DNA of 32,000 nucleotides from Fidelibacterota bacterium (GCA_004124295.1 SCKI01000009.1:55325-87324); one strand, 5' to 3'. Numbered from the stretch's first letter, positions 5,233 to 31,973 are shown. The notes: generated by a model not told the origin, from the sequence alone. Translations and numbers: made by a program.

Positions 5233-5268
5233 GTAGACGGCCCTTCCGGATACAATGATTCCGCCGGT

Positions 5269-5366
5269 TGACCACCCCGCCACAAGGCAGGGTGGTCAGC
5301 AAAGCGGAAAGAAGTCAACGGTACAATCGTCAACTTAACGAATATTGAAGCGGTTTAACGCTTCAA
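5269..5366 (-). promoter_or_regulatory. Two stem-loops in the flgE-motA junction
   Basis: Hairpin TTGAAGCG-6 nt-CGCTTCAA (5345-5366) overlaps the flgE stop codon. Hairpin TGACCACCC-12 nt-GGGTGGTCA (5269-5298) lies just upstream of the motA RBS. Neither is followed by a clear U-tract. Confidence 0.4.
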
Positions 5367-10886: not shown

Positions 10887-11353
10887 TAGCCTACTGCTCT
10901 CCCGTGACTGCTCATCAGGTAGCTGCGTGCGGCCACTTCATCCAGTGCCCGCTGATCTTTTCTATCTTCTTCCAACCGGGCAGCGCTGTTCTGATGATCT
11001 TTTAATTTTTCAAGTGTCTGTTTGGCCTGGGCCGCCTCTTCCACCAACTTGCGTTGCAGTTCCACGGCATCCCGGGACTGGCGGGCCCGATAGATGAAAT
11101 GCCCGATCTCCGCATGGAGCTGCAGGGTGTAGCGGCTACGCACCATCAATTCCTGGGGACCCAGGATGGCCGCTTTGCGTTCCTGGTCACTGGCAGTGGT
11201 GAGGAATTCTTCCTTTATCTGCTGGGTGCGGGCCAGACTCTGCAGGTTCTGGACATGGACATCTTCCCGCTGCCGCAGGGCCAGCGCCTCTATTTGCAGC
11301 AGAATCTCCTTCACATCGAGAAGCCGCTGGCGCCTGAATCCTTTACTGGCCAT
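10886..11353 (-). CDS. fliJ: Flagellar export chaperone/stalk protein FliJ
   Basis: 155 aa, charged and entirely helical/coiled-coil in composition. It lies immediately after fliI and overlaps it by 11 nt. The call is mainly positional. Confidence 0.7.
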   Translation of the reverse strand: MASKGFRRQRLLDVKEILLQIEALALRQREDVHVQNLQSLARTQQIKEEFLTTASDQERKAAILGPQELMVRSRYTLQLHAEIGHFIYRARQSRDAVELQRKLVEEAAQAKQTLEKLKDHQNSAARLEEDRKDQRALDEVAARSYLMSSHGRAVG

Positions 11354-16057: not shown

Positions 16058-16117
16058 TAGGCAATCCTTAAATCAATTATCCGGAATAATATTTTCTGCT
16101 CATATACCGGCTGAACC

Positions 16118-16429
16118 CTAAATGTTCATCCGGTTGATTTCCTGGTAGGCTTCCAACATTTTATTGCGGATTTCCAGCATGAGCTGGAAACTCACGTTCG
16201 CCTCTTCCAGGGCGACCATGGCATTGTGGAGATCGTCAGATTCTCCCAGCACCACGTCGATGATTTTCTTGTCCGCCGTCTGGCTGCGCTCATTCACCGA
16301 GGAAAACAGTTCCTTCATCGCATCGGCGAACGAGGTCCCCTCCGGTTTGCCGGGCTGCTGTTGCGGCTTGACGGCATCGGGTTGACCCAGAGGTGTAATG
16401 CGCGAGAGAGATTCAGGTATTTTCATCAT
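16118..16429 (-). CDS. fliE: Flagellar hook-basal body protein FliE
   Basis: 103 aa. Conserved C-terminus DLHNAMVALEEANVSFQLMLEIRNKMLEAYQEINRM. Confidence 0.88.
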   Translation of the reverse strand: MMKIPESLSRITPLGQPDAVKPQQQPGKPEGTSFADAMKELFSSVNERSQTADKKIIDVVLGESDDLHNAMVALEEANVSFQLMLEIRNKMLEAYQEINRMNI

Positions 16430-16762
16430 CTAGCCCTTCAAATCGACAAAACTGCCCCGCACCATCTGGGGCGGCGGCTGGGATCGGTATAATCTAAAGC
16501 CTGAGGCGCCATTATCATCGCCCTGATTCACAAAAAGCACCTCCAGAATATTTTTTTCCTGCGCCGATAGTATAAGGCCGCCATCGCCGCTACGCAATGC
16601 CTCAGCCACATTTTGCAGCTCGGCAGGACGACCGCCGGCGGCGACTATCCCCTCTGCCAGCTGGCTGGCTGCCGGCTGCCCGCTGGCCACCGGGGCCGGC
16701 GATTGCGGACCGGGCGTAAGCGCCTGGGTCAACTGCTGCAGGATATCGTTGCGAATCTGCAT
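16430..16762 (-). CDS. Hypothetical 110-aa protein inserted between flgC and fliE
   Basis: The ORF exactly fills the flgC-fliE interval. Its ATG is 4 nt after the flgC stop, and its TAG abuts the fliE ATG (TAGATG). It has a P/A/G/Q-rich N-half and the C-half LILSAQEKNILEVLFVNQGDD. I recognise no family. Confidence 0.5.
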   Translation of the reverse strand: MQIRNDILQQLTQALTPGPQSPAPVASGQPAASQLAEGIVAAGGRPAELQNVAEALRSGDGGLILSAQEKNILEVLFVNQGDDNGASGFRLYRSQPPPQMVRGSFVDLKG

Positions 16763-16766
16763 GCCG

Positions 16767-17252
16767 CTACAGGTCCAGCGTCCGCCGGGCCATCTGCTTG
16801 GCGGCGGCCATCACCGAAGTGTTGGCTTCATAGGAGCGGGTAGCGGTGATCATCTCCATCATCTCGTCCACCACGTTCACATCGGGCATTCTTACGTAGC
16901 CCTGGGGATTGGCCTTGGGGTGGTTGGGATCGAACACCAGCCGTTCGTTCGTGCTTTCAACAATTTTTGCCGTGGGCCAGGCCTCGCCCTGGAAGCGGGT
17001 CGATCCCTTGATGCCCCGCAGGTGGACCCGATGGGTGCGCTGCAGGTCGAGCCGTTTGCTCCGCAGCCGGGAACTGAACTGCTCCTTGAAGGACTCCGGA
17101 TCGACAGTCTTGCGGTGATAAATGGGATCGCCTTCGCCGGCCACCTGGTTGGCGTTGGCAATGTTTTCCGACACCGACTCCAGACGTTTCAGCTCACTGG
17201 TGAGGCCCCGGGATACGTGCCCGAATACACTGAATATGCCTTGCAACTTCAT
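16767..17252 (-). CDS. flgC: Flagellar basal-body rod protein FlgC
   Basis: The N-terminus LKRLESVSENIANANQ and the C-terminus YVRMPDVNVVDEMMEMITATRSYEANTSVMAAAKQMARRTLDL are canonical FlgC termini. Confidence 0.93.
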   Translation of the reverse strand: MKLQGIFSVFGHVSRGLTSELKRLESVSENIANANQVAGEGDPIYHRKTVDPESFKEQFSSRLRSKRLDLQRTHRVHLRGIKGSTRFQGEAWPTAKIVESTNERLVFDPNHPKANPQGYVRMPDVNVVDEMMEMITATRSYEANTSVMAAAKQMARRTLDL

Positions 17253-17267
17253 CTCAATCTGCTCCCT

Positions 17268-17636
17268 TTACCTGGTCCGGCCAGTGATGCTCTGAATCAG
17301 GCCCTCATACCTGCGCCGCAAAATGCGGATCGAAAAATCGTAGCGGATCTGGTTTTGGGCCAGGTCGGCCATCTCGCGGGTCAACTGGACAGGTCCCTTC
17401 TCCCAATCGGGAGCATCTGATACCACCGACTCCGGACTGATGTGCCGGGAATCGGATTTCCTTAACCGCAGCTGGCTCTCTACCTTGTTAAGATCGTCGA
17501 GGAAACGGGTCGGTTTGCGATTGTAGCCCGGCTCGTTCATCCGGGAGACATTCTCGGCTATGTTGCGATTATGCCCCATCAAAAGGTCCAGGGACCGCTT
17601 GAGCAGCAGGGTTGAAGGTGTGCTGAATATTTTCAT
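17268..17636 (-). CDS. flgB: Flagellar basal-body rod protein FlgB
   Basis: 122 aa. Contains LLKRSLDLLMGHNRNIAENVSRMNEPGYNRK (rod N-terminal motif) and the C-terminus MADLAQNQIRYDFSIRILRRRYEGLIQSI. It is the first gene of the operon. Confidence 0.9.
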   Translation of the reverse strand: MKIFSTPSTLLLKRSLDLLMGHNRNIAENVSRMNEPGYNRKPTRFLDDLNKVESQLRLRKSDSRHISPESVVSDAPDWEKGPVQLTREMADLAQNQIRYDFSIRILRRRYEGLIQSITGRTR

Positions 17637-17673
17637 GTTTCCGTTTCCATCGAAACCTGTTCGCTAAATAAGC

Positions 17674-17690
17674 ATCAATATTTATGCCAA
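17674..17690 (-). promoter_or_regulatory. Candidate sigma54 (-24/-12) promoter for the flgB operon
   Basis: The reverse strand reads TTGGCAT-AAATA-TTGAT, against the consensus TGGCAC-N5-TTGCW. Spacing is correct, but the -12 element is GA rather than GC. It lies 38 nt upstream of the flgB ATG, and a sigma54-dependent activator gene is nearby. Confidence 0.4.
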
Positions 17691-17809
17691 ACGGTGCTGT
17701 GGATCACAATTGAGGGGAATGGCCCGGTTTTCCAGGCCGCAGAGGGCCGCTTGGGCCAGTGAGGGGAAAAAGTTACCGCCCGGGGAAGGGGGGAAGATGA
17801 ATACCGTAG

Positions 17810-17869
17810 CAGTGGCCCGTCTACTTCCGGCAGCTGCCGGACTACGCCGGGTAAACAGTGGCAGTTGGC
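17810..17869 (-). repeat. REP-like element (single copy, inverted relative to 19209-19268)
   Basis: The reverse complement GCCAACTGCCACTGTTTACCCGGCGTAGTCCGGCAGCTGCCGGAAGTAGACGGGCCACTG matches 19209-19268 at 57/60. It contains GTAG followed by the palindrome TCCGGC-agct-GCCGGA and a second GTAG. Confidence 0.7.
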
Positions 17870-17894
17870 GGTGAGGGGTCAACCTGCGCCTGTC

Positions 17895-17936
17895 GAGGGA
17901 TGAGGGATGAGGGATGGGGATGTTGGATGAGGGAAA
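17895..17936. repeat. Heptanucleotide microsatellite (GAGGGAT)n, about 6 imperfect units
   Basis: gagggat gagggat gagggat ggggatg ttggat gaggga, read directly from the sequence. Confidence 0.7.
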
Positions 17937-17944
17937 AATGCAAA

Positions 17945-18018
17945 ATGAAGGGAAAGATGAACCGCCAAGCCTGCCCTGAGCTTGCCGAAGGGCCTACCCT
18001 GAGCTCGTCGAAAATGCC
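17945..18018 (+). repeat. Purine-rich leader plus CCGCCAAGCYTGCCCTGAGCT element (direct repeat of 19090-19147, with an internal duplication)
   Basis: atgaagggaaagatgaaCCGCCAAGCCTGCCCTGAGCTTGCCGAAGggcctaCCCTGAGCTCGTCGAAaatgcc compared with atgaagagtgaagatgaagttggaCCGCCAAGCTTGCCCTGAGCTCGTCGAAGttgcc. Confidence 0.7.
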
Positions 18019-18120
18019 TTTCCAGAGCGAATCTACGAATACCGGCCACCGACAGTCCATTATTCCGGGCAGTGGACGGTATCCGCCTGCAGCGGGCCGG
18101 TGATTCCTCGTCCCGGCCGC

Positions 18121-18567
18121 CTACACCTCCAGGCGGTACTTCAGCACCGAGTCGTCATCATAATAGAGCCGCAGCACATGACTGTCAATCCTGTACGAAT
18201 GAGATTGAGGAAGTGCCAGGTAGTAGGTGTCTTCATTATGATGGAGCTCGTTCGATAAACAGCCCCTTAGCGTCGTGAGAATACTGCCGATCTCCAACGC
18301 GCCATTTTCCGAAACCATATAAGTGGCCCCGTATTGATTGCAAAAGGAATCACCACTCAGCCGACTATCATCTGAAAATTGGATGGTCACAAACCGGGCG
18401 GGGCCAACCAGGATAATGGGCTCTCCGGGCGCAAAAATGGATTCGAGGGTCCACACGTTGTCCAACAGGTCGGCGTCGGGGAGCGGCTCCTGACAGCCAG
18501 AGAATAGGGCGAGGCATAAAAGTGCGCTGGGGAGTAGAAATCCCGCGCGTGCGCTAATGGTGTTCAT
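18121..18567 (-). CDS. META-domain (HslJ-like) lipoprotein
   Basis: From the internal Met: MNTISARAGFLLPSALLCLALFSGC (lipobox LFSGC). The META pattern follows: VWTLESI...VTIQFSDDSRLSGDSFCNQYGATYMVSENGALEIGSILTTLRGC...YRIDSHVLRLY. The longer ORF-track start at 18711 overlaps the upstream gene and was rejected. Confidence 0.75.
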   Translation of the reverse strand: MNTISARAGFLLPSALLCLALFSGCQEPLPDADLLDNVWTLESIFAPGEPIILVGPARFVTIQFSDDSRLSGDSFCNQYGATYMVSENGALEIGSILTTLRGCLSNELHHNEDTYYLALPQSHSYRIDSHVLRLYYDDDSVLKYRLEV

Positions 18568-18574
18568 GGCAAAC

Positions 18575-19009
18575 CTATCGGGGGCTGAGCTTGATCTTAT
18601 ACCGACCCCAAAAGTCGTCGAGCATGAGCACGTTTTCATCAAGCGTAAATCGATCGGCCGCTTCCAAGGCAAGAACGAAACGCCCCTCCAGAATGCTCCT
18701 CCTCCCGCCACACGCCATCTCTGTTTGGGATAAAAAGGTCACGGACAGTGTCCAGCCCCCCAGCATGGCATAGACGCCGCTGAAATGGTTGCACGGTGTA
18801 CTGGCGCCAACGTCCCAATCATCGAGGAAATGAACGATCATGGTTGTATCCGGGCCGGGTCTGATCGTCTCCTCAGGGGTCCAAAGTTTGTCCACCTGCC
18901 ATGCAGTGCCCAGCAAGGCTTCATCCATCAACGGTGCGCGGGTCAGGTCACATCCGGCTGCCAGGAACCAAACCGTCACAGGGAGAAAAAGCGTATGGGC
19001 AACTCTCAT
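18575..19009 (-). CDS. META-domain (HslJ-like) lipoprotein, paralogue of the downstream gene
   Basis: Signal peptide plus lipobox (VWFLAAGC). META pattern: AWQVDKLW...MIVHFLDDWDVGASTPCNHFSGVYAMLGGWTLSVTFLSQTEMACGG...FTLDENVLML. Confidence 0.75.
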   Translation of the reverse strand: MRVAHTLFLPVTVWFLAAGCDLTRAPLMDEALLGTAWQVDKLWTPEETIRPGPDTTMIVHFLDDWDVGASTPCNHFSGVYAMLGGWTLSVTFLSQTEMACGGRRSILEGRFVLALEAADRFTLDENVLMLDDFWGRYKIKLSPR

Positions 19010-19089
19010 AGTGGGATAGTCGGCTATTCAGGGGCAAAAGTCAAGGAAAGGGTGAAGGGTGCGGGAAAATGTTAATTGTCGATTGATAA

Positions 19090-19147
19090 ATGAAGAGTGA
19101 AGATGAAGTTGGACCGCCAAGCTTGCCCTGAGCTCGTCGAAGTTGCC
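19090..19147 (+). repeat. Purine-rich leader plus CCGCCAAGCTTGCCCTGAGCTCGTCGAAG element (direct repeat of 17945-18018)
   Basis: See the feature at 17945-18018. Same orientation on both sides of the META gene pair. Confidence 0.7.
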
Positions 19148-19160
19148 CGGAGGCATAGGG

Positions 19161-19195
19161 AGGACTAAGGACTAAGGACCAAGGACCAAGGACTG
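19161..19195. repeat. Heptanucleotide microsatellite (AGGACYA)n, 5 units
   Basis: aggacta aggacta aggacca aggacca aggact, read directly from the sequence. Confidence 0.75.
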
Positions 19196-19208
19196 CATCC
19201 CGAAACTT

Positions 19209-19345
19209 GCCAACTGCCACTGTGTACCCGGCGTAGTCCGGCCGTTGCCGGAAGTAGACGGGCCACTGTTTACCCGGCGTAGTCCGTCCCGAAGGTTCGG
19301 GATCGGAAGTAGACGGGCCACTGTGTACCCGGCGTATCCCGGCCG
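19209..19345 (+). repeat. Tandem REP/BIME-like elements, 2 full units plus 1 truncated (unit starts 19217, 19263, 19318)
   Basis: Each unit is CCACTGTKTACCCGGCGTAG, then a hairpin, then GGAAGTAGACGGG. The central hairpins differ but remain self-complementary (TCCGGC-cgtt-GCCGGA; TCCCGA-aggt-TCGGGA). The truncated third unit runs up to the stop codon of the activator gene at 19349. Confidence 0.7.
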
Positions 19346-19348
19346 CCC

Positions 19349-20722
19349 TCAGGAGATCGAAGCGGCGCCTGCACCGGGGCCGTACTGCTTAAGTTTGTTG
19401 CGCAGGGTCTTCACGGAGATGTCCAGGATCCGGGCCGCCTGGGTCCGGTTCTGGCCGGTGCCCTCCAGCGTCGCCAGGATGGCCTCCCGCTCCACGTCGG
19501 CTATGGTTCGGGTCCCGTTGAACAGCTCCTTGCTGAGCCCCTCATCCTTAAGCACCGGCGGAAAGAAGTGCGCCATGGTGAGGCTCTCGGCAGCCCCGGC
19601 GAAAAGGATCGCCCGCTCGGTGGTGTTTTTTATCTCGCGGACATTGCCCGGCCAATCGTAGGCCTCCAGCTTGCGCAGGGTCTCCGGTTCGATGGATTTT
19701 TTCGGCTGGCCGTACTTGTCACTGAAATGGGCCGTAAAGTGCTCCAGCAGGATGGGAATATCGCCCGTCCGCTCGCGTACCGGCGGCACCAGCACGGGCA
19801 CCACATTCAGGCGATAGTAGAGGTCCTCCCGGAATTTGCCGGACCGCACCAGTTCCTGAATGTTCTGGTTGGTGGTGGCGATAATGCGCACGTCCACCTT
19901 GATGGTCTTGTGGCTGCCCACCTTGTTAAGCTGGTGCTCCTGGAGCACGCGCAGCAGTTTGGCCTGCAGGCCCACCGGAATTTCGCTGATCTCATCCAGC
20001 AGCAGGGTACCGCCGTCGGCCTCCTCAAACAGCCCTTTGGTGGTCTTGCTGGCGCCGGTGAAGGCCCCCTGCACATGACCAAACAGGGTGCTCTCCATCA
20101 AATTCTCCGGGATGGCGGCGCAGTTGGTCTGCAGGAACGGCCCGTCGGCACGGTCGCTCCGGCGGTGGACGGCGGAGGCCACCAGCTCCTTGCCGGTGCC
20201 GCTCTCCCCCTGGATAAACACCGGGGCGTCACTGTTGCTTACCATGTCGATGATGCCCAGCACGGCCTGCAGCTCCCCGCTTTCTCCCAGCATGTCGGCC
20301 ACCGCTTCGGTCGATCTGATCTTGGCCTTGAGCTGCCGGTTCTCCCGGCGCAATGAATGCAGCTCGAAGTAGCGGCTGAAACGTGATTCGATTTCGGTGA
20401 TGGAGAACGGCTTGGTGAGGTAGTCGAAGGCGCCCAGCTTCATGGCCTCCACGGCGGTCTCCACCGTGCCGTAGGCGGTAATCATGATCATGCCGGGGGG
20501 CTCCTCCAGGGTGCCGATGTCCTTCAGCAGGGCCAGACCGTCCTTCTTGGGCATTTTGAGGTCGGATAGGACGAGGTCCGGGGGCGACTCCTTAATCGAC
20601 TCCCAGGCCTCCTGGCCGTCGTTGGCCATCACCACCTCATAGCCCTTCCCCTCCAGGGTTTCCTGCAGAAACAGGCGAATGTAATTATCGTCGTCGACGA
20701 CCAGAATCCGATGTTTTTTCAT
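19349..20722 (-). CDS. Sigma54-dependent response regulator, NtrC family (FlrC/FleR/FlgR-like flagellar activator by context)
   Basis: REC domain: ILVVDDDNY, LVLSDLKMPKKDG, LTKPF. AAA+ domain: Walker A GESGTGKE, sigma54-contact loop GAFTGA, Walker B LLLDEI. C-terminal Fis-type HTH: RTQAARILDISVKTLRNKLKQYG. Confidence 0.93.
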   Translation of the reverse strand: MKKHRILVVDDDNYIRLFLQETLEGKGYEVVMANDGQEAWESIKESPPDLVLSDLKMPKKDGLALLKDIGTLEEPPGMIMITAYGTVETAVEAMKLGAFDYLTKPFSITEIESRFSRYFELHSLRRENRQLKAKIRSTEAVADMLGESGELQAVLGIIDMVSNSDAPVFIQGESGTGKELVASAVHRRSDRADGPFLQTNCAAIPENLMESTLFGHVQGAFTGASKTTKGLFEEADGGTLLLDEISEIPVGLQAKLLRVLQEHQLNKVGSHKTIKVDVRIIATTNQNIQELVRSGKFREDLYYRLNVVPVLVPPVRERTGDIPILLEHFTAHFSDKYGQPKKSIEPETLRKLEAYDWPGNVREIKNTTERAILFAGAAESLTMAHFFPPVLKDEGLSKELFNGTRTIADVEREAILATLEGTGQNRTQAARILDISVKTLRNKLKQYGPGAGAASIS

Positions 20723-20759: not shown

Positions 20760-21932
20760 TCACAGCGGCAAACTCAGGCGCATTGCCATGCCACTATCGG
20801 CTGCTGATTGCAGCTCCGCCGAACCACCCAATGTTTCCATAATCCTGCGTACCTGCACCAATCCCAAACCCAGATGCCCGGACTTGGACGTGAAAAATGG
20901 CACCCACCAGTCGGCCGTATCCTGCTCGCCGGCTCCCATTCCATGGTCGCGGATGGTGATCACCACCACCCCCTCAGCCAAGGCTGCCGATACGGCCAGG
21001 TCCCCTGGGCCGGGTGTTTCCAGGGCCTCGATGGCGTTTTCCAGCGACCGCTGGATGGCCTCCCGCACCAGCTCCGGATCGGTGACCAACTGGACATCCT
21101 TCTCCAGCAGGGTCAGGGCAATGATATCGCCCGCCAGGTCGTTGCCGCTGCTGAAGGCCGCCACCACCTCCTCCAGGAAACCGTTCAGGTTGACCTTGAT
21201 CCAGTGGGGCTCTATGATTTCCCGGAAGACGGTGCCCAGCGCGGAGGCCAGCAGGTTCAAACGGTCGATGCCGTGGCGGATGAACTGCAGCTTGTCGGTT
21301 TCCCCGGGATCCAGACCCTGGACCTGCAGCAGCAGCTCGGCAAATCCCTGCATCGAGGTGAGGGGGGTGCGGATTTCGTGGACCAGGGTGCCGGTGAGGT
21401 TTTTCAATATCTGGTTTTCCACATCGCGCAGGTGATCGAGCTCCAGGTCCTGGGCCACCAGCAGCAGCAGGCGTCCCTTTTCGATGGGGTTGTCAAGGTA
21501 GATGCAGTCGTACACGCCGGCGCTGCCTCCCACCTGCAGCTTAACGTCGACGGCACTTTGCGAACTGGTTTCGCTGATGAGCCGGGTGAAGTTTTCCAGT
21601 ACCGGCGCCGTGAGGACCTGCCCCAGAGCCGTCTGGCCGTCAAGCCGGAAGGCCCGCTGGGCCTCGTCATTGGCAGTGATGACCTCCAGGTCCTGGTTCA
21701 GCACCAGGGATGCCTGGGACAGCCCGCCCACCAGGGTGCCCATGAGGTGCAGCGGCGCCAGATTGGGCAGTTCCAGACCTGCGGATTCGCTCACCGTTTC
21801 CCAGACCGGTTCCGAGCCGGCGAGGAGCTCCTGTTCGAGCTGGTGATAGGCGGATTGCACCTCTGCGGCAGCCAGCCTGAACTGCTCTACCAGCTGCTCC
21901 AGGGAGGCGCTAGATTCGAGCTTACGGGTCAA
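20760..21932 (-). CDS. Cytoplasmic sensor histidine kinase with PAS-like N-terminal domain (FlrB/FleS/FlgS-like by context)
   Basis: H-box LVHEIRTPLTSMQGFAELL. HATPase_c motifs SLENAIEAL, IRDHGMGAG and GHLGLGL. No TM segment. PAS-like stretch ASLVLNQDLEVITANDEAQRAF. Confidence 0.9.
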   Translation of the reverse strand: MTRKLESSASLEQLVEQFRLAAAEVQSAYHQLEQELLAGSEPVWETVSESAGLELPNLAPLHLMGTLVGGLSQASLVLNQDLEVITANDEAQRAFRLDGQTALGQVLTAPVLENFTRLISETSSQSAVDVKLQVGGSAGVYDCIYLDNPIEKGRLLLLVAQDLELDHLRDVENQILKNLTGTLVHEIRTPLTSMQGFAELLLQVQGLDPGETDKLQFIRHGIDRLNLLASALGTVFREIIEPHWIKVNLNGFLEEVVAAFSSGNDLAGDIIALTLLEKDVQLVTDPELVREAIQRSLENAIEALETPGPGDLAVSAALAEGVVVITIRDHGMGAGEQDTADWWVPFFTSKSGHLGLGLVQVRRIMETLGGSAELQSAADSGMAMRLSLPL

Positions 21933-24019: not shown

Positions 24020-25477
24020 TTAGGCTTTTTTCCGCAAGGCTTGCTCCAGCGGCCCGTAGCTCAATATATCGCCGGCCCGGTAAATCAACAAATTGTGCCG
24101 CTCCTTCTTCATCAGCATGTTGGTATCACCGATGCCGAGCGCCACTTCGGGATAGATGGTATCCTGAATGCGGATACTCTCGGATTCGGTCTCCTCATCG
24201 GGCTTTTCCCGTTCGTGCTGTTCCAGCTCTGCCTCCAGCTGGGCGTGCCGTTTATGTTCATGCAGCAGCACGGTCTCTTTTCTCTCCAGCTCATTATACT
24301 GGATTTCCTTGTCCGGGGTCAGGGTGCCCATGCGCTGCTTGAGGATTTTAAGAAACGACAGCCGCTTCTGAATATAGGCCAGCTCCATCCGGTTGCGCCG
24401 CTGATCGGTGCGCAGCTGGTACTTCTCCTTGGTCTGCGCATGGGGCGGTGTGAAACCTACCTTCAGCTCCGTCGCCGTCCTGTTTTCCGAGCCGGCAACC
24501 CGCACGTGAATCTTTTTCTCGGCGAAGGCCGTACCGCCTCTGATCAGGCCCTCATTGCTGATCACCAGGAGATATCTGCCGGCGGTGACAGCGCTGTTAA
24601 TGATATAGCGGCCAACCTCGACGTTTTCCTTGGCGCCGATGGTGGCATCCTGGATGAACCCGGCCACGATGTTTGAGCCGGCCAGGATACGGGCCTTGGA
24701 ATGGCCGATAATGCCGTTGCGAACCCAGATGCTGCCACTGCGGGAATAGACGTCGGCCCCCTCAATATTGCCGCCAATGAATATATCGCCCATCGCTTCC
24801 ACGCGCATGCCCGAACGGACATCCTGTTCGATATAAACGGCGGTATCGGCCATGATGTCGCCGGTGGTTGAATCGACGCTTCCAGCGATGTGCTGCATTT
24901 CCGTCACGGCCACGCCGACCCCATCCCAGTGGGCGATGCCGGCCCTGGCGGCCATGAGGGTCAGGCCATCATTGGACAGGACCGTGCCCTCCCCTTTGGG
25001 CATGGCGATATCGTTGCCGGTGACGATCACCGATTTGCCGAAAATATTCATGCCCTCGGAGCCTTCGGTGGGGGGCAATTTGGAAAGGATTTGGTCGCCC
25101 TTCCCCACTTTCGTAAATATCTGCAGGTGCCGGCCGCTGCCGATCAGGTCGGTAATATCCTGGGGGCTGGCGCCATCCTCGGAGATATCGTTCCAGATCA
25201 GGCGGGCGTGTCCCCCATCACTGGGCTCGTCACCCTTGGCAAAGATAAGGGCTTTCCCGCGGACCTGCTCCTTGACCAGTTTATCGATGGCCTTGTCGTT
25301 GATGCCGTAACTCACCTTGGCCTTCTCAATGGCCAGATGAATCTGCTTCAGGGTAGGGAAAGATCCCGCATCGTCGGGAACGTAGAGGGCGGCGGCATAG
25401 CCGTCGTTGAGCACCTTGACGTGGACGACAGTGCCATTTTCCTGATCAACCGGATCGCTTCTGAAGGTTTCCGCCAT
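24020..25477 (-). CDS. FapA/DUF342-family protein (flagellar assembly protein A-like)
   Basis: N-terminal FapA_N-like pattern VHVKVLNDGYAAALYVPDD...LKQIHLAIEKAKVSYGINDKAIDKLV. Central beta-helix repeats (GDIFIGGNIEGADVYSRSGSIWVRNGIIGHSKARILAGSNIVAGFIQDATIGAKENVEVG). Then a coiled coil and the terminal IRIQDTIYPEVALGIGD block. Confidence 0.8.
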   Translation of the reverse strand: MAETFRSDPVDQENGTVVHVKVLNDGYAAALYVPDDAGSFPTLKQIHLAIEKAKVSYGINDKAIDKLVKEQVRGKALIFAKGDEPSDGGHARLIWNDISEDGASPQDITDLIGSGRHLQIFTKVGKGDQILSKLPPTEGSEGMNIFGKSVIVTGNDIAMPKGEGTVLSNDGLTLMAARAGIAHWDGVGVAVTEMQHIAGSVDSTTGDIMADTAVYIEQDVRSGMRVEAMGDIFIGGNIEGADVYSRSGSIWVRNGIIGHSKARILAGSNIVAGFIQDATIGAKENVEVGRYIINSAVTAGRYLLVISNEGLIRGGTAFAEKKIHVRVAGSENRTATELKVGFTPPHAQTKEKYQLRTDQRRNRMELAYIQKRLSFLKILKQRMGTLTPDKEIQYNELERKETVLLHEHKRHAQLEAELEQHEREKPDEETESESIRIQDTIYPEVALGIGDTNMLMKKERHNLLIYRAGDILSYGPLEQALRKKA

Positions 25478-26699: not shown

Positions 26700-27719
26700 A
26701 TGAACAGCAGAACGCAACCCACCCCCACAGCTGCGCGCCTGGCGAAGTCGGCAGTAATCGTATTCATCGCTATCGCTGCCGGCCTGGTGCCCTTGGAAGC
26801 GCAGGGCGCCGAATCCAAAAAAGGAATCTCCGGCAAGGTATATTTCAACTGGACCTACGACGCCGATCCGGATGCTGCGGGATACAATGAATTTACCTTT
26901 ACCCGGCTCTATTTGAGTTACGGGAAAAATCTCTCGGAATCGATAAAAATCACTCTTACGACCGACATCCTGAATAATGGGACACCTTGGGTCGCTTACC
27001 AGAAATATGCCTATCTTACCGCCAAACTGGGCAAGGGCGAGGTGTTTATCGGTCTCCAGGGGATGAATATTTTCAACATCACCGAAAGCAACTGGGGCTA
27101 CCGCTTCCTGGCCAAGTCCAGCATGGACGCGCACAAGTTTGCCAGTTCGGCCGACATGGGGTTGGGATATGCCGCCACTTTTGCCGAAAAGGTGCACTTG
27201 CACCTCACCGTCACGAACGGTAAAGGATATAAGTATGTGGAGAATGACAAGTACAAGAAACTTGCGGCTCAGGCAGTATTCGGTGAAAAATCCTTGGCCT
27301 CCCACAGCGGCTTTAATGCCGGCGCTGCATTCAGTTTTGAGCCGTATGAATTTGGCATCGATATGACCGAATCCATATCGGTTTTGACCGTCTTCGGTGC
27401 TTTCGCAACTGAATCTCTACGGATCGGAGGCGAATTTGACCGCAAGATCGATAGCGGTAAATATACCCAGCAAATCATCGCAGCTTATCTGGACTACCAC
27501 ATTTCGGCTATTCACAAAATGCACGTCAATGTCTTTGGCCGCGTAGAAATCTACGACAAGAACATCGATGAGCCGGGCGATGAACTAAGTATTCTGGCGG
27601 GGCTTAGTATCTCCCCGGTCAAGACCTTGCATATCGCTCCCACGATCCAAATTGGGGAATTGGCGTCTGGCGACCTTGGCCTCAGCGCATTGCAGCTCAA
27701 CTTTGAATTTAAATTCTAG
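26700..27719 (+). CDS. Outer-membrane beta-barrel porin (family not identified)
   Basis: SD GAAGGAG 9 nt upstream. Signal peptide AVIVFIAIAAGLVPLEAQG. Alternating amphipathic strands rich in Y/F/G. C-terminal beta-signal LQLNFEFKF ending in Phe. Confidence 0.6.
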   Translation: MNSRTQPTPTAARLAKSAVIVFIAIAAGLVPLEAQGAESKKGISGKVYFNWTYDADPDAAGYNEFTFTRLYLSYGKNLSESIKITLTTDILNNGTPWVAYQKYAYLTAKLGKGEVFIGLQGMNIFNITESNWGYRFLAKSSMDAHKFASSADMGLGYAATFAEKVHLHLTVTNGKGYKYVENDKYKKLAAQAVFGEKSLASHSGFNAGAAFSFEPYEFGIDMTESISVLTVFGAFATESLRIGGEFDRKIDSGKYTQQIIAAYLDYHISAIHKMHVNVFGRVEIYDKNIDEPGDELSILAGLSISPVKTLHIAPTIQIGELASGDLGLSALQLNFEFKF

Positions 27720-27786: not shown

Positions 27787-28431
27787 ATGATAGTAAAGAG
27801 CAGGATAGACCCGTGGAATACGAAAGTATGGCTAGGATTGATCACGGTGTTGCTAGCGCCTGGATGGGCTCAAATCAATGGGATTTCGAATGAAAAATTA
27901 TCGCTGCCCAATGCAGCCGTACTCGCGGCAGGACTCTTTGAGTTCGAGCCCGGCTATGCCCTGCAAGGTGATGATCGATCAGTGGCCTTCCGGTTTACCG
28001 CCGGATTCGGAAAGTTGGAGGCTGGCGTGAGCCTCGATGGCGCGCTGCGCAACCAGGCCTTCGGGCTGAAAATGGGCTTGTTGCCTGACCGGCTGGCACT
28101 GATTGCCGGGGTGGAATATGATACCCGTTTCCATGATACGGCCCTCGGCATCGTCTATAGCGCCCCAATCAGCGGCAGACTCTTTGCCGATATTTCCGCC
28201 GTGGCAATCAGGCCGCGTGATTGGACCTTTATGGCGGGCCTGGGCTTTTTTGTTTCCGGCCAGCTGCAGCCCATTCTGGAACTGGTGGCCGATCAGAACG
28301 GATTTTCCAACATCAGTTATGGGTTCACATTCCGCCATAACGATAATGTGTTGGTGGTAGTCGGAGTGGAGCAAACGTTTAACCAGGGTGAAGAGCACCT
28401 GATGATTCTAGCCTTCACTTTTTCCATGTAG
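27787..28431 (+). CDS. Putative small outer-membrane beta-barrel protein
   Basis: From the Met at 27787: MIVKSRIDPWNTKVWLGLITVLLAPGWAQ (signal-like). Short alternating strands follow (VAFRFTAGF, LEAGVSLDG, FGLKMGL, ALIAGVEYD, ALGIVYSAP, TFMAGLGFFV, ISYGFTFRH, LVVVGVEQTF, MILAFTF). The start could instead be 27745. Confidence 0.4.
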   Translation: MIVKSRIDPWNTKVWLGLITVLLAPGWAQINGISNEKLSLPNAAVLAAGLFEFEPGYALQGDDRSVAFRFTAGFGKLEAGVSLDGALRNQAFGLKMGLLPDRLALIAGVEYDTRFHDTALGIVYSAPISGRLFADISAVAIRPRDWTFMAGLGFFVSGQLQPILELVADQNGFSNISYGFTFRHNDNVLVVVGVEQTFNQGEEHLMILAFTFSM

Positions 28432-28473: not shown

Positions 28474-29214
28474 ATGCGAAAGTCTAACCCCATACTGTTT
28501 GTTGCGCTCTTGGTTGCAGCGGTCCTCTTCGGCCATGTTGCAATGATCGAAGCCCAGGATCTCAGTGCGCTTAAGTCCGGTAACCGGCGCTTCGTAAGAG
28601 GCCTGACCAACCAATCCGCCCGGCAGTACCCTCATCAGGACAAGTCGCGGCTTGATCAGAATGCCACCGGCGGGCAGCAACCCTTCGTAACGATCATAAG
28701 CTGTTCGGATTCACGGGTGCCCGTCGAACTCGTATTTGATGCCGGCTTAGGCGATATTTTTTCAATCCGCATTGCCGGCAATGTCTGCGATATCGACGAG
28801 GCCGGGTCTATCGAGTATGGGGCGGGTCACCTGAACACACCCCTGCTGGTTGTTTTGGGCCACACGGGCTGCGGCGCCGTAACAGCCGTGGTCGAGGGCG
28901 CAGAAGTTCATGGCAGCATCCCCAGGCTGGTGGATAATATTATCCCGGCGGTGGCTCGCGCCAGATCCCAGCACCCTCGCGCCCGCGGAAAAGAGTTGAT
29001 AAATTTTGCGGTAACCGAAAACGTCTGGCAGGGCATTGACGACCTGTTCAAAATAAGCGTGGAGGTCCGCCATCTGGTGTCATCCGGTTCTCTGGATGTA
29101 CAAGGGGCGGTTTATGAACTGGAGACCGGCAAGGTCAAATGGTTGGGCCGGCATCCCGATCAGCGCGCCCTGCTGAGATACACCGGCGGTACGGGATCAC
29201 GCGAAAGTCACTGA
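28474..29214 (+). CDS. Secreted (periplasmic) beta-class carbonic anhydrase
   Basis: SD AAGGAG. Signal peptide ILFVALLVAAVLFGHVAMIEAQ. Beta-CA zinc-site motifs C-S-D-S-R (28703-28717) and H-T-G-C-G. N-terminal GNRRF motif. Confidence 0.9.
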   Translation: MRKSNPILFVALLVAAVLFGHVAMIEAQDLSALKSGNRRFVRGLTNQSARQYPHQDKSRLDQNATGGQQPFVTIISCSDSRVPVELVFDAGLGDIFSIRIAGNVCDIDEAGSIEYGAGHLNTPLLVVLGHTGCGAVTAVVEGAEVHGSIPRLVDNIIPAVARARSQHPRARGKELINFAVTENVWQGIDDLFKISVEVRHLVSSGSLDVQGAVYELETGKVKWLGRHPDQRALLRYTGGTGSRESH

Positions 29215-29321
29215 GAACAGTGAAAACTTTGACCATCCATATATGCTTCTTTGCCAGGGCAATGATTGTGAGCAGCTTAGTTGAATTGCAGATGTGTGAA
29301 TAAGGGCGATTGGAGATTCTT

Positions 29322-31973
29322 ATGAGAAACCGAATTTTTTATACACTTATCATAGGGCTGTTGATGGCGGTAAATCTGCCGGGGCAAAGTTCCCGGAACA
29401 AAGCCCAAGGCCTCAACGCGCTGATGATGGGCAATCAGCGTTTTGTAAACGGCCTAACCGATCAATCGGCGCGGCAGTATCCCCATCTCGACCGGGCCCG
29501 GCTCCGGGAGAACGCCTCTTCGGGGCAGTATCCCTACGCAACCATTATCGGTTGCTCCGACTCCCGGGTACCCATTGAAATTATATTTGATGCCGGCATA
29601 GGCGATATCTTCCCTATCCGGGTGGCCGGTAACGTGTCTGACGTGGACGAAATCGGTTCCATCGAATACGGGGTGGGCCACGTCAACACACCCGTCATGC
29701 TCGTCCTGGGCCATACGGGCTGCGGTGCCGTGACCGCCGTGGTGGAAAACGCCGACGTGCGCGGCAATATCCCGCCGCTGGTAGACAATATCATTCCGGC
29801 TGTTGCCACTGCCCGCTCGAAATACCCGCGTGCCCGGGGGGCGGCGCTGATCAATTACGCCGTGGAGGAGAATGTCTGGCAGAGCATAGCCGATCTCATC
29901 AACAACAGCGCAGAAACTGCGCGCCTGGTCTCCAGCGGCGCCCTCGCTGTGCTGGGAGGTGTCTACCATCTCGAAACCGGCGCAGTCGAATGGCTGGGCG
30001 AACATCCCGCACAGGAGAGTCTGATAGCATCCAGCGGCGGGAGTGGGCAGGCAACTGCCGCGATAACCGGTCGCCGTGCTGGCCAGAGCACGAGCCATAG
30101 CACACCGGCCGACAGCAGAATTCGTAACAATCGATCAACCCAAATAGCATCATCAACGAGTGCGCAGAGGGGAACTGCGCACGCAAGCACACCCACTGAA
30201 GGGGGTATATCAATGGATCTCATTATGATAGTCGGCCTGGTACTGCTGGGGGTAGGGGGACTTTTCTTTGTCCTGACCAAGACCGCCTGGAAGCTGGACA
30301 ACCTGAAGATTCGCTACAAGATCATGACCCTGTCCGCGAGCATCGCGACGGTATTCGCCGTTGCGCTTTTTTACTCCAGCGCCAAGATCGCCAGTATGGG
30401 TGAAGGATTCCGGGAAGTGGAGAAGGTCTATATCCCCCTCATCGGAGTAATGTCCAAAATCGAAGCTCATATGTTCGAGCAGGAGATCAGCCTGCTGCAA
30501 GTGGTTATCGCAGAGCGGGACCATAATGAACAGGCCATGCTGGAGCACGAGGAAGAGTTCGAACATTTGGCGGCCCAAGTCAAGGAGGAAATCCTTGAGG
30601 CCGAGCTAATCGTCCAGGAGGGTCAGCAATTTGCCCAAGATGAAGCCGACGAGGCCTGGCTGGAAGAAACCCTGGAACACCTGAAGAAGATCGACCGGGA
30701 ACACGACGAATTCGACGAGGGCGGCCTGGAGATCTTCGCCCTGATCGCCGCAGGCAATACGAGGGAAGCGAACATGTTGGAAGCGGAAGTTGCGGAGGAA
30801 GGCTTGCAGCTTGCGATGGAGATTGAGGTGTTCCTTGACAGCGTTGAGGTGCGCACCGAAGAAATCAGCGCGCATTTGTCGGCCGAGGAAAAGGCGGCCC
30901 TGCTGGCGGTAATCGTCCTGGCCATCGTCGCTATACTACTGGCCATATTCCTGACATTATTCATGTCAAGCGCCATTACCAAACCCATTGGCCAACTGCT
31001 TGTGGGAATGAAAGCGCTGGGCGATGGGGATCTCACCAGGACGGTGGAAATGGCCAACAAGGACGAAGTCGGCGATATGGCGGAGTACCTTAACGAAGCG
31101 ACAGATAGTCTGCGCGCAACAATGCAAAAAATCATGACCAGTTCCGGACAGGTGCAGGATGCTTCAATACAGATATCATCTGCTTCTGAGGAATTGGCGG
31201 CTGGCGCCGAGGAGCAACAAGCGCAGCTCTCGGAGGTGGCCACTACGATGGAACAGATGAGCGCGATGATATTGGAGTCCAGCAAGAACGCTACCGAGAC
31301 GCGCGAAAGCGCTCAGGCGACCGGCGGGACGGCGCAAGAGGGGCGGGATACCGTTACCAAAACGGTTACGGGATTTGAAACCATGGCCAAAACGGTGGAG
31401 CAAGCCGCCGGCCAGATTCAGGAACTAAGCCGCCGGTCGGAAGAGATCGGCAAGGTGATCCAGGTGATTGACGACATCGCCGATCAGACCAACCTGCTGG
31501 CCCTGAATGCCAACATTGAGGCGGCCCGGGCCGGAGACGCTGGCCGGGGCTTTGCCGTGGTTGCCGATGAGGTCCGCAAACTGGCCGAAAGGACCGTGAG
31601 TGCTACAGCGGAGATTGGCAAAATGATAGAAACTATCCAGAACGATATTCAGACAGCTGTGGGCTCCATGGAAAACCTCCAGTCGCAATCCCAGGAGGGG
31701 CTCGAATTGGTTAATGAGTCCGACCAGTCGCTGGAAAACATATCCTCTTCGATTGAAACTGTCATCAGCGCCGTCGAGCAGATTGCCACGGCAACCAATG
31801 AGCAGAGTTCGGGGGCTGAGGAGATATCCAAGAATATCGAGGGGGTAACGACGGTAGCCAAGGAGTCGGCTTCCAGCGCCCAGCAGATGGCATCCTCGGC
31901 CGAGCAACTCAATCGGGAGGTCGAGGGACTGAACACCCTGATCGCCCAATTCAAAGTCGATGCCGATAAGTAG
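29322..31973 (+). CDS. Fusion protein: periplasmic beta-carbonic anhydrase - linker - TM - complete methyl-accepting chemotaxis protein (helical sensor, HAMP, MCP signalling domain)
   Basis: GGAG 6 nt before the ATG at 29322. Signal-like [17 protein letters not shown]. Beta-CA motifs CSDSR (29553-29567) and HTGCG (29712-29726). S/T/G/R linker. [24 protein letters not shown]-type N-terminus [11 protein letters not shown] plus a TM. An acidic helical domain. [29 protein letters not shown] (ITKPIGQLL...[11 protein letters not shown]). Signalling hairpin [38 protein letters not shown]. No stop codon anywhere in 29322-31970. Confidence 0.85.

Follow-up and report, generated by a model that had tools for sequence, protein, structure and literature searches.

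Why a bacterial chemoreceptor would carry a carbonic anhydrase in front of its usual N-terminus is the question raised by one gene in the stretch of DNA analysed here, a window of 32,000 nucleotides from a Fidelibacterota bacterium (GCA_004124295.1, SCKI01000009.1:55325-87324), a marine and flagellated member of the Marinimicrobia. The gene is a single uninterrupted ORF in which a signal-like N-terminus, a beta-class carbonic anhydrase (beta-CA), a tether, an extra transmembrane helix (TM0), a basic loop, TM1, a sensor domain, TM2, a HAMP domain and the signalling domain of a chemoreceptor (MCP) follow one another (Table 1). A first-pass annotation of the window had described one ORF of 883 codons and had taken it for an evolved fusion, not an accident of assembly. 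Both statements were borne out, the first by the ORF call, by independent gene calls that also gave 883 aa and by an identical protein on three contigs from separate assemblies, the second by these same contigs, by an open frame in orthologs and by the recurrence of the architecture in at least 98 clusters, among the best 120 matches, from several phyla.

Table 1. Features of the CA–MCP fusion gene and its upstream neighbours, in nucleotides from the start of the window (amino acid positions refer to the fusion protein).
Feature	Coordinates	Strand	Basis or remark
Conserved OMP-like gene, 339 aa, ends ...FEFKF	26700..27719	+	Syntenic with CA-MCP in other Marinimicrobia
Second conserved gene, 194 aa from its ATG	27847..28431	+	Syntenic with CA-MCP
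Stand-alone beta-CA paralog, predicted secreted, 246 aa	28474..29214	+	65% identical to fused CA domain
Entire beta-CA–MCP fusion gene, 883 codons plus stop	29322..31973	+	Uninterrupted ORF
Signal-peptide-like N-terminus	29322..29393	+	Read from sequence: basic n-region, then hydrophobic core; AF2 helix aa 2-17
Beta-class carbonic anhydrase domain, aa 25-235	29394..30026	+	Pfam, structure model, alignment
Zinc ligand C78	29553-29555		Motif CSDSR
Asp/Arg dyad, D80 and R82	29559-29567		Motif CSDSR
Zinc ligand H131	29712-29714		Motif HTGCG
Zinc ligand C134	29721-29723		Motif HTGCG
Low-complexity S/A/T/G/R-rich tether, aa 236-299 (64 aa)	30027..30218	+	Predicted disordered, pLDDT about 33
Extra TM helix TM0, aa 300-318	30219..30275	+	Hydropathy, AF2 helices, family comparison
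Short basic cytoplasmic loop, net +4	30276..30320	+	Equivalent of unfused MCP N-terminus
TM1, aa 334-352	30321..30377	+	Hydropathy, AF2 helices
Predicted periplasmic four-helix-bundle ligand-binding domain (LBD), aa 353-525, 173 aa	30378..30896	+	AF2, family profile A1
TM2, aa 526-544	30897..30953	+	Hydropathy, AF2 helices
HAMP domain, aa 547-599, directly after TM2	30960..31118	+	Pfam PF00672, 4.6e-10
MCP cytoplasmic signalling hairpin, aa 600-883, conserved tip	31119..31970	+	PF00015, Foldseek, alignment

The start of the fusion gene is preceded by GGAG 8 nt 5' of the ATG, and a TTG four codons upstream, at 29310, is a possible alternative start. A 1-aa variant and an ortholog at 81% identity have the same architecture as the query. 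That separate CA and MCP genes had been wrongly joined, by misassembly or by a frameshift, could be argued from an internal SD-like GAAGGGGG followed 7 nt on by an ATG at 30214, just 5' of TM0, and from a relative (P0123) called as a 587-aa protein that begins at TM0. However, the same ORF stands on three independent contigs, in the orthologs at 81%, 60% and 39% identity the reading frame runs uninterrupted across a divergent linker of variable length, and in the window the linker has stops in both other frames and no tandem repeat that we could find. The internal Met is absent from P0003 and P0014, and neither a linker derived from an intergenic spacer nor a TM0-MCP made separately from the internal start was accepted as a conserved feature. 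The seemingly natural split of P0123 is an artefact, traced to a 100-N scaffold gap within a 24-nt tandem repeat of the ortholog. With the architecture also recurring across the family, we consider an artefactual join hardly credible.

The N-terminal part of the protein was confirmed as a signal-like start followed by a complete beta-CA core. Pro_CA (PF00484) matched aa 73-222 over its full profile (positions 1-156, 6.6e-35, 121 bits against a cutoff of 25.7), and the zinc ligands and Asp/Arg dyad are accompanied by the substrate-pocket residue Gln69. The AF2 model of the domain (pLDDT about 90) matched Rv3588c of M. tuberculosis (2A5V) in Foldseek with a TM-score of 0.87, an rmsd of 2.0 Å and 35% identity. 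In an alignment of 40 sequences the catalytic columns were invariant, and most of the invariant columns of the family fell in the CA core. Across the fusion family, an N-terminal hydrophobic segment was found in 82 of 98 members and CxDxR and HxxC at the right spacing in 161 of 162 beta-CA domains; P0043 is a fusion whose CA motifs are lost. In many fusions the CA domain is present in 2 or 3 tandem copies, every one of which has its motifs intact, and catalytic dose appears to be under selection. This pattern of conservation suggests that the CA of the fusions has been kept by selection as an enzyme, and hydratase activity is predicted.

The remainder of the ORF, as had been noted at first pass, resembles a complete canonical MCP, and HAMP and MCPsignal (PF00015, aa 688-845, 1.3e-47) were found by Pfam in the same protein as Pro_CA. 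The signalling hairpin matched the E. coli core signalling unit (8C5V) in Foldseek, and the columns of its tip, E733 to A748, were invariant in the 40-sequence alignment. Between TM1 and TM2, where a helical domain of about 170 aa had been noted, AF2 placed four antiparallel helices (330-399, 403-437, 441-476 and 480-567, pLDDT 90-97). The signature positions of this sensor family include G360, IPL 371-373, H383, Q387, H461 and E523, and the domain has a net charge of -34 in the query. Its match to 4HB_MCP_1 (PF12729) was partial and below threshold (18.5 bits against a cutoff of 27), for which reason we speak of a 4HB-type fold and leave the domain outside PF12729. Sequence searches found no solved or characterised homolog of this sensor family.

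Joining an exported enzyme to the cytoplasmic N-terminus of an MCP requires one additional membrane crossing, and the first-pass annotation had pointed to a linker of about 60 aa, an extra TM helix satisfying this topology and, after it, an MCP-type cytoplasmic N-terminal motif. All three were confirmed. Exactly three TMs lie between the CA and the signalling domain in 91 of 98 beta-CA fusions; of these 91, all have a net positive TM0–TM1 loop and 90 a net acidic sensor domain. The loop motif matches the true N-termini (MKNLKLGTKI...) of unfused MCPs of the same sensor family. With signal peptide and topology assigned from hydropathy, charge rules and AlphaFold helices, the charge pattern is what one would expect with the CA and the sensor in the periplasm and the loop in the cytoplasm. 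The tether shares just 18-65% identity among orthologs and varies in length, and it is always in frame. A disordered, freely evolving tether that never loses the frame argues for chemical or proximity coupling between the two halves and against rigid mechanical coupling. The fusion as a whole was modelled by AlphaFold with a pTM of 0.39, at which the geometry between domains is not reliable.

We define the CA–MCP family by an N-terminal export signal, one to three CA domains, a low-complexity tether, an extra TM, a basic loop and a complete transmembrane MCP, and every one of these sequence elements is present in the query. Beta-CA–MCP clusters come from Marinimicrobia, Zixibacteria, Planctomycetota and Spirochaetota, the phyla being taken from source names alone. 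A GTDB genome scan with the full-length alignment keyed on the MCP hairpin-tip motifs and returned generic MCPs, and the phyletic spread given here draws nothing from it. Relatives of the sensor domain were gathered by an exhaustive HMMER search with an LBD profile. Beta-CA was absent from 102 of the 115 full-length MCPs of the query's sensor family among the best 150 matches, and 6 of these 102 bear an alpha-class CA (alpha-CA) instead; since most members do without a beta-CA, the enzyme is an accessory that this receptor family does not require, and what the family senses could have nothing to do with inorganic carbon. Derivatives that lack the CA and retain the signal peptide, linker and TM0 also exist. 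On an NJ tree of the LBDs with parsimony, CA states were interspersed, in a tree that includes fragments and is not robust at such divergence. By hhalign no relatedness was found among the LBD groups, except of c2 with c3. In a minor correction to the earlier reading, this sensor domain is not confined to CA fusions.

A second, non-homologous class of enzyme was found in the same position. Alpha-CA (PF00194) is fused to MCPs in 45 clusters, one of which (P0292) has only a 45-aa CA remnant, leaving at least 44. These come mostly from Thermodesulfobacteriota, Nitrospirota, Betaproteobacteria and Spirochaetia, keep the order signal peptide, CA, linker, TM0, loop and TM1 in 43 of the 45 and retain the HxH...H zinc triad in 42. 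Both CA classes occur with each of three sensor-domain families (c1/A1, c3 and c5): 33 alpha fusions scored 95-180 bits against a c1/A1 profile built from beta fusions only, 5 alpha fusions belong to c3 (E 1e-64 to 6e-85), and in c5 the alpha and beta versions of Spirochaetes are 41% identical in the LBD. The convergence of unrelated enzymes on the same sensor families indicates that catalytic activity is what selection acts on, and it is unusually strong comparative evidence of function for proteins known only from metagenomes. The first-pass annotation had suggested taxis to CO2, bicarbonate or pH, and alpha-CAs on the same sensor families in the same topology are strong comparative support for that suggestion.

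We propose that the tethered CA probably turns CO2 into HCO3- and H+ at the sensor, which would make the fusion an enzyme-coupled chemoreceptor for real-time inorganic-carbon taxis. The N-terminal signal would export an active beta-CA to the periplasm, and the flexible tether of about 64 aa together with the extra TM would anchor it at the N-terminus of a transmembrane MCP that is ordinary in other respects. The enzyme would in this way be held within nanometres of the periplasmic four-helix-bundle sensor. Since MCPs are dimeric and beta-CAs obligately so, each receptor dimer could bear a single CA dimer. CO2 crosses membranes freely and its hydration is slow without a catalyst; the uncatalysed half-time of tens of seconds exceeds chemotactic memory, and micrometre-scale CO2 plumes are consequently out of equilibrium with pH and HCO3-. 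The tethered CA would hydrate CO2 at the receptor, the sensor domain would register one of the two products, and HAMP and the signalling hairpin would control CheA via CheW and with it the bias of the flagellar motor. Thanks to the enzyme, a ligand that is otherwise difficult to detect could be read within the second or so over which chemotaxis operates. Where CO2, HCO3- and H+ are in full equilibrium, a CA gives no net product, and the proposed mechanism therefore needs local disequilibrium. Whereas the architecture and its recurrence, the conserved catalytic residues, the charge patterns, the convergence with alpha-CA and the gene context are observed, we infer CA activity, periplasmic location, coupling to the sensor, the direction of the response and which species, HCO3- or H+, is sensed. 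The fusion is a strong candidate for a receptor with which bacteria could swim along CO2 gradients.

The CA could instead be a tethered co-receptor and not generate the signal as an enzyme: it would bind CO2 or HCO3-, or else an inhibitory anion (sulfide, cyanate or nitrate, for example), and would then switch state and dock onto the four-helix bundle. Such a role likens the CA to a periplasmic binding protein (maltose-binding protein with Tar), the tether merely holding it close. Docking is compatible with a flexible tether and with proximity, and 4HB receptors are known to sense indirectly by way of binding proteins. Rv3588c, the nearest relative with a solved structure, also belongs to the beta-CAs with a switchable active site, whose open and closed states depend on pH and ligand. 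However, alpha-CAs, which are rigid monomers and for which we know of no ligand-induced conformational switch, replace the beta-CA on the same sensor families. Furthermore, the full catalytic machinery, beyond a binding pocket, is kept in 161 of the beta-CA and 42 of the alpha-CA domains, and tandem duplication of the CA suits catalytic dose better than a docking partner at 1:1 stoichiometry. We consider a co-receptor role unlikely.

The surroundings of the gene add an inorganic-carbon and a chemotaxis context, which speak for the proposed enzyme-coupled receptor. The stand-alone beta-CA paralog ends at the point where the linker of the fusion begins, an alpha-CA predicted to be secreted lies downstream just past the edge of the window, and the order beta-CA, fusion, alpha-CA is kept in the 81% ortholog. 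A malic enzyme (decarboxylating) is encoded in the same neighbourhood, and a flagellar and motor/stator cluster adjoins the fusion gene. No che genes were found in the window; CheW and/or CheR flank the fusions in three sampled loci of relatives. A scan for promoters and terminators gave counts no different from shuffled sequence, and we accordingly make no claim of an operon; no Rfam matches were found in the window. The OMP-like protein had no Pfam or NCBIfam match, and its single-sequence AlphaFold model reached a pLDDT of 30. Homology to the porin part of CA–porin fusions was rejected for this protein, since BLAST found none. The OMP-like gene and the 194-aa gene are possible parts of the CA-MCP system.

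The malic enzyme and the further CAs would fit a receptor that monitors the cell's own metabolism. In such a receptor the tethered CA would hydrate, in the periplasm, the CO2 released by respiration or decarboxylation, and the sensor would read the resulting local acidification or HCO3-, much as in energy taxis. The chemistry and anatomy are identical to those of the sensing of external CO2 proposed above, and CO2 made by the cell is by definition out of equilibrium, so that the CA would give net product; nothing distinguishes the sensing of own CO2 from that of external CO2. The link to malic enzyme is nevertheless confined to one locus, whereas other fusions lie beside cheW or cheR, and the fusion has no cytoplasmic metabolic sensor domain. 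Taking these points together, we find a receptor for self-made CO2 quite improbable.

A paralog immediately upstream also makes an origin by gene fusion plausible, and the two halves need not be coupled at all. The MCP might merely anchor or localise a metabolic periplasmic CA, which at the pole, for instance, could serve to acquire inorganic carbon or to keep the pH steady near the receptor array; or the joining of two neighbouring genes might have been neutral. Porin fusions and secreted tandem enzymes also occur in this CA clade, which indicates non-sensory roles too, and most members of the sensor family function without a CA. However, a single TM anchor would suffice for localisation, and the partner is repeatedly an MCP of a few particular sensor families, with two unrelated classes of CA. 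The architecture is kept across phyla with both halves conserved, and neutral read-through would not repeatedly yield a correctly oriented extra TM. An uncoupled fusion has, in our estimate, only a small chance of being correct, and sensing of CO2 through its hydration products at the receptor is the reading we retain.

To our knowledge, bacterial perception of CO2 is poorly understood, even though CO2 is a universal product of respiration and the substrate of autotrophy. No dedicated bacterial CO2 chemoreceptor was found in the searchable literature, and no description of a CA–MCP fusion in the full texts searched; a Pelobacter genome paper mentions CA in an unrelated context. Of the possibility that the architecture is common and already characterised, the first half applies, while for the second no characterisation was found in these texts, and the CA–MCP fusions form a large and apparently undescribed family. 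We see roughly even chances that these fusions make up a widespread, previously undescribed class of enzyme-coupled receptors, convergent between alpha- and beta-CAs, which would give diverse uncultured bacteria true CO2 chemotaxis by way of microscale disequilibria; the lineages named for this reading are Marinimicrobia, Planctomycetota, Zixibacteria, Desulfobacterota, Nitrospirota and Spirochaetota. If true, a receptor bearing its own signal-converting enzyme would represent a new design principle for chemoreceptors, catalysis-coupled sensing, and would explain how a small, uncharged and slowly reacting gas can be sensed within about one second. It would also offer a molecular handle on how microbes behave where the fusion lineages live, near respiring particles as well as in oxygen-minimum zones and sediments, and would parallel the CA-dependent sensing of CO2 in animals.

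Each half of the fusion has known counterparts. With the secreted or periplasmic beta-CAs (PRK15219 family; closest solved structure Rv3588c, 2A5V/1YM3) the query shares the fold, the Cys-His-Cys zinc site, the Asp/Arg pair and the Gln, but its CA is covalently tethered to a signalling receptor instead of free and, at 140 bits, scores under the 221-bit PRK15219 cutoff of NCBIfam. With canonical four-helix-bundle chemoreceptors of the E. coli Tar/Tsr type it shares the layout TM1–4HB–TM2–HAMP–hairpin, the conserved tip and the short basic N-terminal motif before TM1, as well as the CheW/CheR neighbours seen in its relatives. Unlike these receptors, it begins ahead of the usual N-terminus with an enzyme predicted to be exported, followed by a disordered tether and one more TM, and its sensor is a distinct family, under the 4HB_MCP_1 threshold and with no solved homolog found by sequence. 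The alpha-CA–MCP fusions (e.g., P0229, P0135 and P0304 from Ca. Magnetoovum), which like the beta fusions appear uncharacterised, have the same layout through LBD, TM2 and MCP and share its LBD families, but carry the evolutionarily unrelated PF00194 enzyme with a His3 zinc site.

Sensing of inorganic carbon is known in other forms. Mammalian sour-taste cells carry extracellular CA IV, and CO2-sensing olfactory neurons contain CA II. In Chlamydomonas, the flagellar CAH6 has been proposed for CO2 sensing, and a cah6 mutant is still chemotactic to bicarbonate (PMC7595284). The logic shared with such eukaryotic systems is the conversion of CO2 to HCO3-/H+ beside a receptor that detects the product; there, the enzyme is not part of the receptor protein and the signalling pathways are unrelated, whereas the query is a single polypeptide. 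Among bacteria, the MCP TlpA of Helicobacter pylori has been reported for bicarbonate taxis and linked to responses to bicarbonate and acid, but its sensor is of the dCache_1 type, it lacks an enzyme domain, and bicarbonate is one of several ligands (PMC8406319). The sensing of maltose through maltose-binding protein and Tar resembles what we propose in that an accessory periplasmic protein lends specificity to a 4HB receptor; in the query, however, the accessory module is an enzyme, covalently tethered and joined to the receptor through the extra TM that its topology requires.

An uninterrupted 883-codon open reading frame plus stop, as described in the first-pass annotation, was borne out by reading the window and by independent gene calls, which also give 883 aa. 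A GGAG lies 8 nt ahead of the ATG at 29322, and an alternative TTG start is possible four codons upstream. Pfam matched the three domains expected together in one protein, a beta-class carbonic anhydrase (CA), a HAMP domain and a chemoreceptor (MCP) signalling domain, and a 4HB_MCP_1 match was sub-threshold. The zinc ligands (C78, H131, C134) and Asp/Arg dyad (D80, R82) that the annotation had reported intact were located from the CSDSR and HTGCG motifs, and the CA model superposed on M. tuberculosis Rv3588c (TM 0.87, rmsd 2.0 A). Hydropathy analysis agreed with an AlphaFold model (mean pLDDT 76), and both returned the same order of linker, extra transmembrane helix (TM0), TM1, helical domain, TM2, HAMP and signalling domain. 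The observation of a beta-CA–MCP fusion is confirmed.

Features of the fusion protein and its surroundings (nucleotide positions in the window unless a locus is named; aa, residues of the fusion)
Feature	Position	Strand	Remarks
FliN	777..1880	-	
FliM	1870..2865	-	
FliL	3124..3696	-	
PomA/MotP-like stator	4405..5283	-	best matches Na+-type PomA/MotP
FlgE	5355..6986	-	
FlgD	7557..8249	-	
FliK-like	8264..10342	-	
FliI	11343..12695	-	
FliG	13357..14442	-	
FliF	14459..16057	-	
Short/unassignable ORF	16749..17420	+	
Short/unassignable ORF	18121..18711	-	
Sigma-54 response regulator (activator)	19349..20722	-	
Histidine kinase	20760..21932	-	
Two receiver proteins (response regulators)	within cluster	-	
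FapA	24020..25477	-	
OMP-like gene	26700..27719	+	ends ...FEFKF; no Pfam/NCBIfam match
Gene without assigned function	27847..28431	+	no Pfam/NCBIfam match
Stand-alone secreted beta-CA paralog	28474..29214	+	65% identical to fused CA domain
Beta-CA–MCP fusion	29322..31973	+	
Antisense ORF	29454..30098	-	
Antisense ORF	30623..31285	-	
Antisense ORF	31425..31949	-	
Secreted alpha-CA, 259 aa	L001 12960..13739		PF00194, signal peptide; about 300 nt past window 3' end, directly downstream of fusion
N-terminal hydrophobic helix	aa 2-17		hydropathy + AlphaFold
Pro_CA (PF00484)	aa 73-222		Pfam 6.6e-35
CA core			AlphaFold, pLDDT about 90
S/A/T/G/R-rich linker, predicted disordered	aa 236-299		pLDDT about 33
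TM0	aa 300-318		hydropathy + AlphaFold
Basic loop	between TM0 and TM1		sequence
TM1	aa 334-352		hydropathy + AlphaFold
Four-helix bundle	TM1 to TM2		very high model confidence, pLDDT 90-97
TM2	aa 526-544		hydropathy + AlphaFold
HAMP + long signalling hairpin	after TM2		hydropathy + AlphaFold
HAMP	aa 547-599		Pfam 4.6e-10
MCPsignal	aa 688-845		Pfam 1.3e-47

The fusion is real and not an artefact of assembly or a frameshift, which is excluded by several lines of evidence, in line with the annotation's reading of an evolved fusion. Three contigs of separate assemblies, of which the longest measures 542 kb, encode the identical protein, and a fourth encodes it with one residue changed. Its architecture is retained in orthologs at 81%, 60% and 39% identity, where the linker diverges most (18-65% identity) and differs in length but stays in frame in every ortholog compared. 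Stops are present in both remaining frames across the linker, and no tandem repeat was found in the window's own linker.

A Shine-Dalgarno-like stretch (GAAGGGGG) and an ATG 7 nt later at 30214, together spanning 30197..30216, lie inside the reading frame just ahead of TM0. Read-through or an internal start was considered here and ruled out as a conserved feature, since this Met is not conserved in more distant orthologs; the arrangement is probably fortuitous, and separate expression of the TM0-MCP part could still occur in this lineage. The 81% ortholog (MCH7575750.1, a Marinimicrobia MAG protein whose sole annotation is 'HAMP domain-containing protein') has in its linker a 24-nt tandem repeat encoding SHAPAQTA (about 6850..6910 in locus L090, about 3670..3880 in L088), whose copy number differs between assemblies to give proteins of 892 and 900 aa. 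A 587-aa relative annotated from the same start (cluster P0123) was rejected as a spurious gene call caused by one scaffold's 100-N gap within this array. Antisense ORFs of 174-220 aa across the fusion gene, with a similar gene call in one ortholog assembly (L088 3063..3614), are probably spurious by-products of the GC-rich coding strand.

A search over about 5.8 billion proteins returned 288 matches at E <= 1e-10, and among the 120 top-ranking clusters (90% identity) 98 carried beta-CA and MCP signalling domains together, with source names including Candidatus Marinimicrobia, Zixibacteria, Planctomycetota (Phycisphaerae, Thermoguttaceae) and Spirochaetota. The fusions contain from one to three CA domains in tandem. 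CxDxR and HxxC motifs with correct spacing were present in 161 of 162 such domains, one fusion having lost them, and most invariant columns of a 40-sequence alignment fall in the CA core. The same beta-CA clade also includes secreted tandem CA x2 and CA x3 proteins of 485-670 aa (among P0032, P0034, P0084; P0026-P0042 etc.) and proteins of about 955-990 aa that join CA x2 to a phosphate-selective-porin-like domain (PF07396), a combination of enzyme and porin that is uncharacterised.

An N-terminal hydrophobic segment was found in 82 of the 98 fusions, and in 91 the stretch from the last CA to the signalling domain contains exactly three such segments; among these 91 the loop after TM0 is always net positive and the TM1–TM2 domain is net acidic in 90. 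This pattern, a prediction from simple rules, fits the earlier proposal of an extra helix demanded by topology, TM0 returning the chain from a periplasmic CA to the cytoplasmic MCP N-terminus. The basic-loop motif matches the true N-termini (MKNLKLGTKI...) of MCPs that share this sensor family but are unfused, so the fusion is an ordinary MCP with a module of export signal, CA, tether and TM0 added in front.

A profile of the sensor's four-helix-bundle family (A1), made from 40 beta-CA fusions, was searched exhaustively against 1.84 billion cluster representatives, giving 1,777 matches, 400 of them at E <= 1e-30. The best 150 comprised 13 beta-CA fusions and 102 MCPs without beta-CA (79 of the latter plain receptors whose sensor begins near residue 33), and A1 is therefore not confined to CA fusions. 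The six non-beta members whose N-terminal extensions are longest each have an alpha-class CA (PF00194, E 1e-37 to 1e-43), from an enzyme family that shares no ancestry with beta-CA. Further searching recovered 45 alpha-CA–MCP clusters, including P0292 with only a 45-aa CA remnant. The three-TM layout of the beta fusions is repeated in 43, the HxH...H zinc triad is intact in 42, and 33 have an A1-type sensor, at 95-180 bits against the profile from beta fusions only. The c3-type sensor (about 285 aa), found in Planctomycete-type beta-CA x2/x3 fusions, has full-length matches in five alpha fusions (E 1e-64 to 6e-85), among them one from Ca. Magnetoovum, and Spirochaete beta and alpha fusions have canonical 4HB_MCP_1-type sensors 41% identical. 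Between these sensor families no relatedness was detectable by hhalign except for c2 to c3, and no solved homolog of A1 was found by sequence.

CA class is thus interchangeable while a few sensor families (A1, c3 and the Spirochaete type) recur in both. The simplest reading of these comparisons would be selection on the common catalytic activity, CO2 + H2O <-> HCO3- + H+, beside the sensors, and the convergence is unusually strong comparative evidence for function. A co-receptor role, with CA as a tethered binding protein docking on the sensor, is harder to reconcile with the replacement of beta-CAs by rigid alpha-CAs and with fully conserved catalytic sites. Anchoring only, in which the MCP merely holds or localises CA, leaves unexplained the repeated pairing with MCPs of a few sensor families and the correct orientation of the extra TM.

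Signature positions of A1 (G360, IPL 371-373, H383, Q387, F413, E446, H461, E491/E493, T512, E523) are alike in beta-fused, alpha-fused, plain and CA-less-extension members, so CA has the look of an accessory to a sensor whose site is unchanged. Eight members (P0138, P0150, P0192, P0137, P0148, P0223, P0226 and, with its remnant, P0292) combine a signal peptide and TM0 with a low-complexity periplasmic segment of 50-130 aa, often rich in His, but are without CA, and look like CA-loss derivatives. His-rich tethers also occur in alpha-CA fusions; that they bind protons is speculation.

The fusion lies among plus-strand genes divergent from a minus-strand flagellar and motor cluster (about 325-25932). 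Within it, the stretch of about 3.3 kb that separates fliF from the sigma-54 regulator (16057..19349) holds only short or unassignable ORFs, with no NCBIfam or Rfam matches. The OMP-like gene and its neighbour keep synteny with CA-MCP in two other Marinimicrobia loci (54-57% identity), and the pair precedes the 60% ortholog; possibly they supply this system with an outer-membrane component, and a single-sequence AlphaFold model from these genes was uninformative (pLDDT 30). Alignment of the stand-alone paralog with the fusion ends at GGTG/GGSG, the end of the former and start of the linker, which suggests tandem duplication of a beta-CA and fusion of one copy to an MCP. The locus thus encodes three predicted periplasmic CAs of two classes (stand-alone beta, fused beta, secreted alpha), and gene order including the alpha-CA is kept in the 81% ortholog locus. 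A GAF/PAS hybrid kinase and malic enzyme follow the alpha-CA beyond the window, and cheW and/or cheR adjoin other family members.

We infer a mechanism in which the tethered CA, nanometres away from the sensor, would turn membrane-permeant CO2 into HCO3- and H+; the sensor would register one product and the MCP would signal to CheA. Because beta-CA is dimeric and MCPs are dimers, one CA dimer could assemble per receptor dimer. Without a catalyst, CO2 hydrates slowly (rate constant a few hundredths per second at 25 C), and the half-time, tens of seconds, is longer than the chemotaxis memory of roughly 1-4 s, so CO2 plumes at navigation scales of tens to hundreds of micrometres are out of equilibrium with pH and HCO3-. 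Such plumes would escape a sensor for pH or bicarbonate alone, and CA at the sensor would render them visible. Chemical coupling fits better than mechanical coupling, given the disordered, freely evolving tether, tandem CA copies and alpha/beta interchange, and the conserved His/Glu positions and very acidic sensor (net -34) are compatible with HCO3- or H+ as signal. Together, the comparisons appear to support and extend the CO2/bicarbonate/pH sensing first proposed. The same chemistry could instead read the cell's own CO2 output in an energy-taxis-like response, which the data do not separate from external sensing. Against the model stand the A1 receptors without CA, which are the majority (the 102 lacking beta-CA, of which the six with longest extensions have alpha-CA), the derivatives keeping signal peptide, linker and TM0, the fusion with lost motifs, and the porin-fused and secreted tandem relatives.

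The architecture proved common, as the annotation had allowed. Full-text searches outside subscription journals turned up no account of a CA–MCP fusion, although an earlier description is possible. Some members are labelled 'methyl-accepting chemotaxis protein/carbonic anhydrase' by JGI and NCBI pipelines, so the domains had already been seen by software, and the same literature gave no sign of their interpretation. Both halves are known families; joined through a tether and TM module of their own, they make a new chemoreceptor variant. The nearest functional precedents come from animals, Chlamydomonas and H. pylori. In animals there is CA-dependent CO2 sensing. In Chlamydomonas, a role was proposed for the flagellar CAH6 but is unsupported, the cah6 mutant still showing bicarbonate chemotaxis (PMC7595284). 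The dCache receptor TlpA of H. pylori is linked to bicarbonate and acid and, unlike the CA–MCP fusion, has no enzyme domain (PMC8406319).
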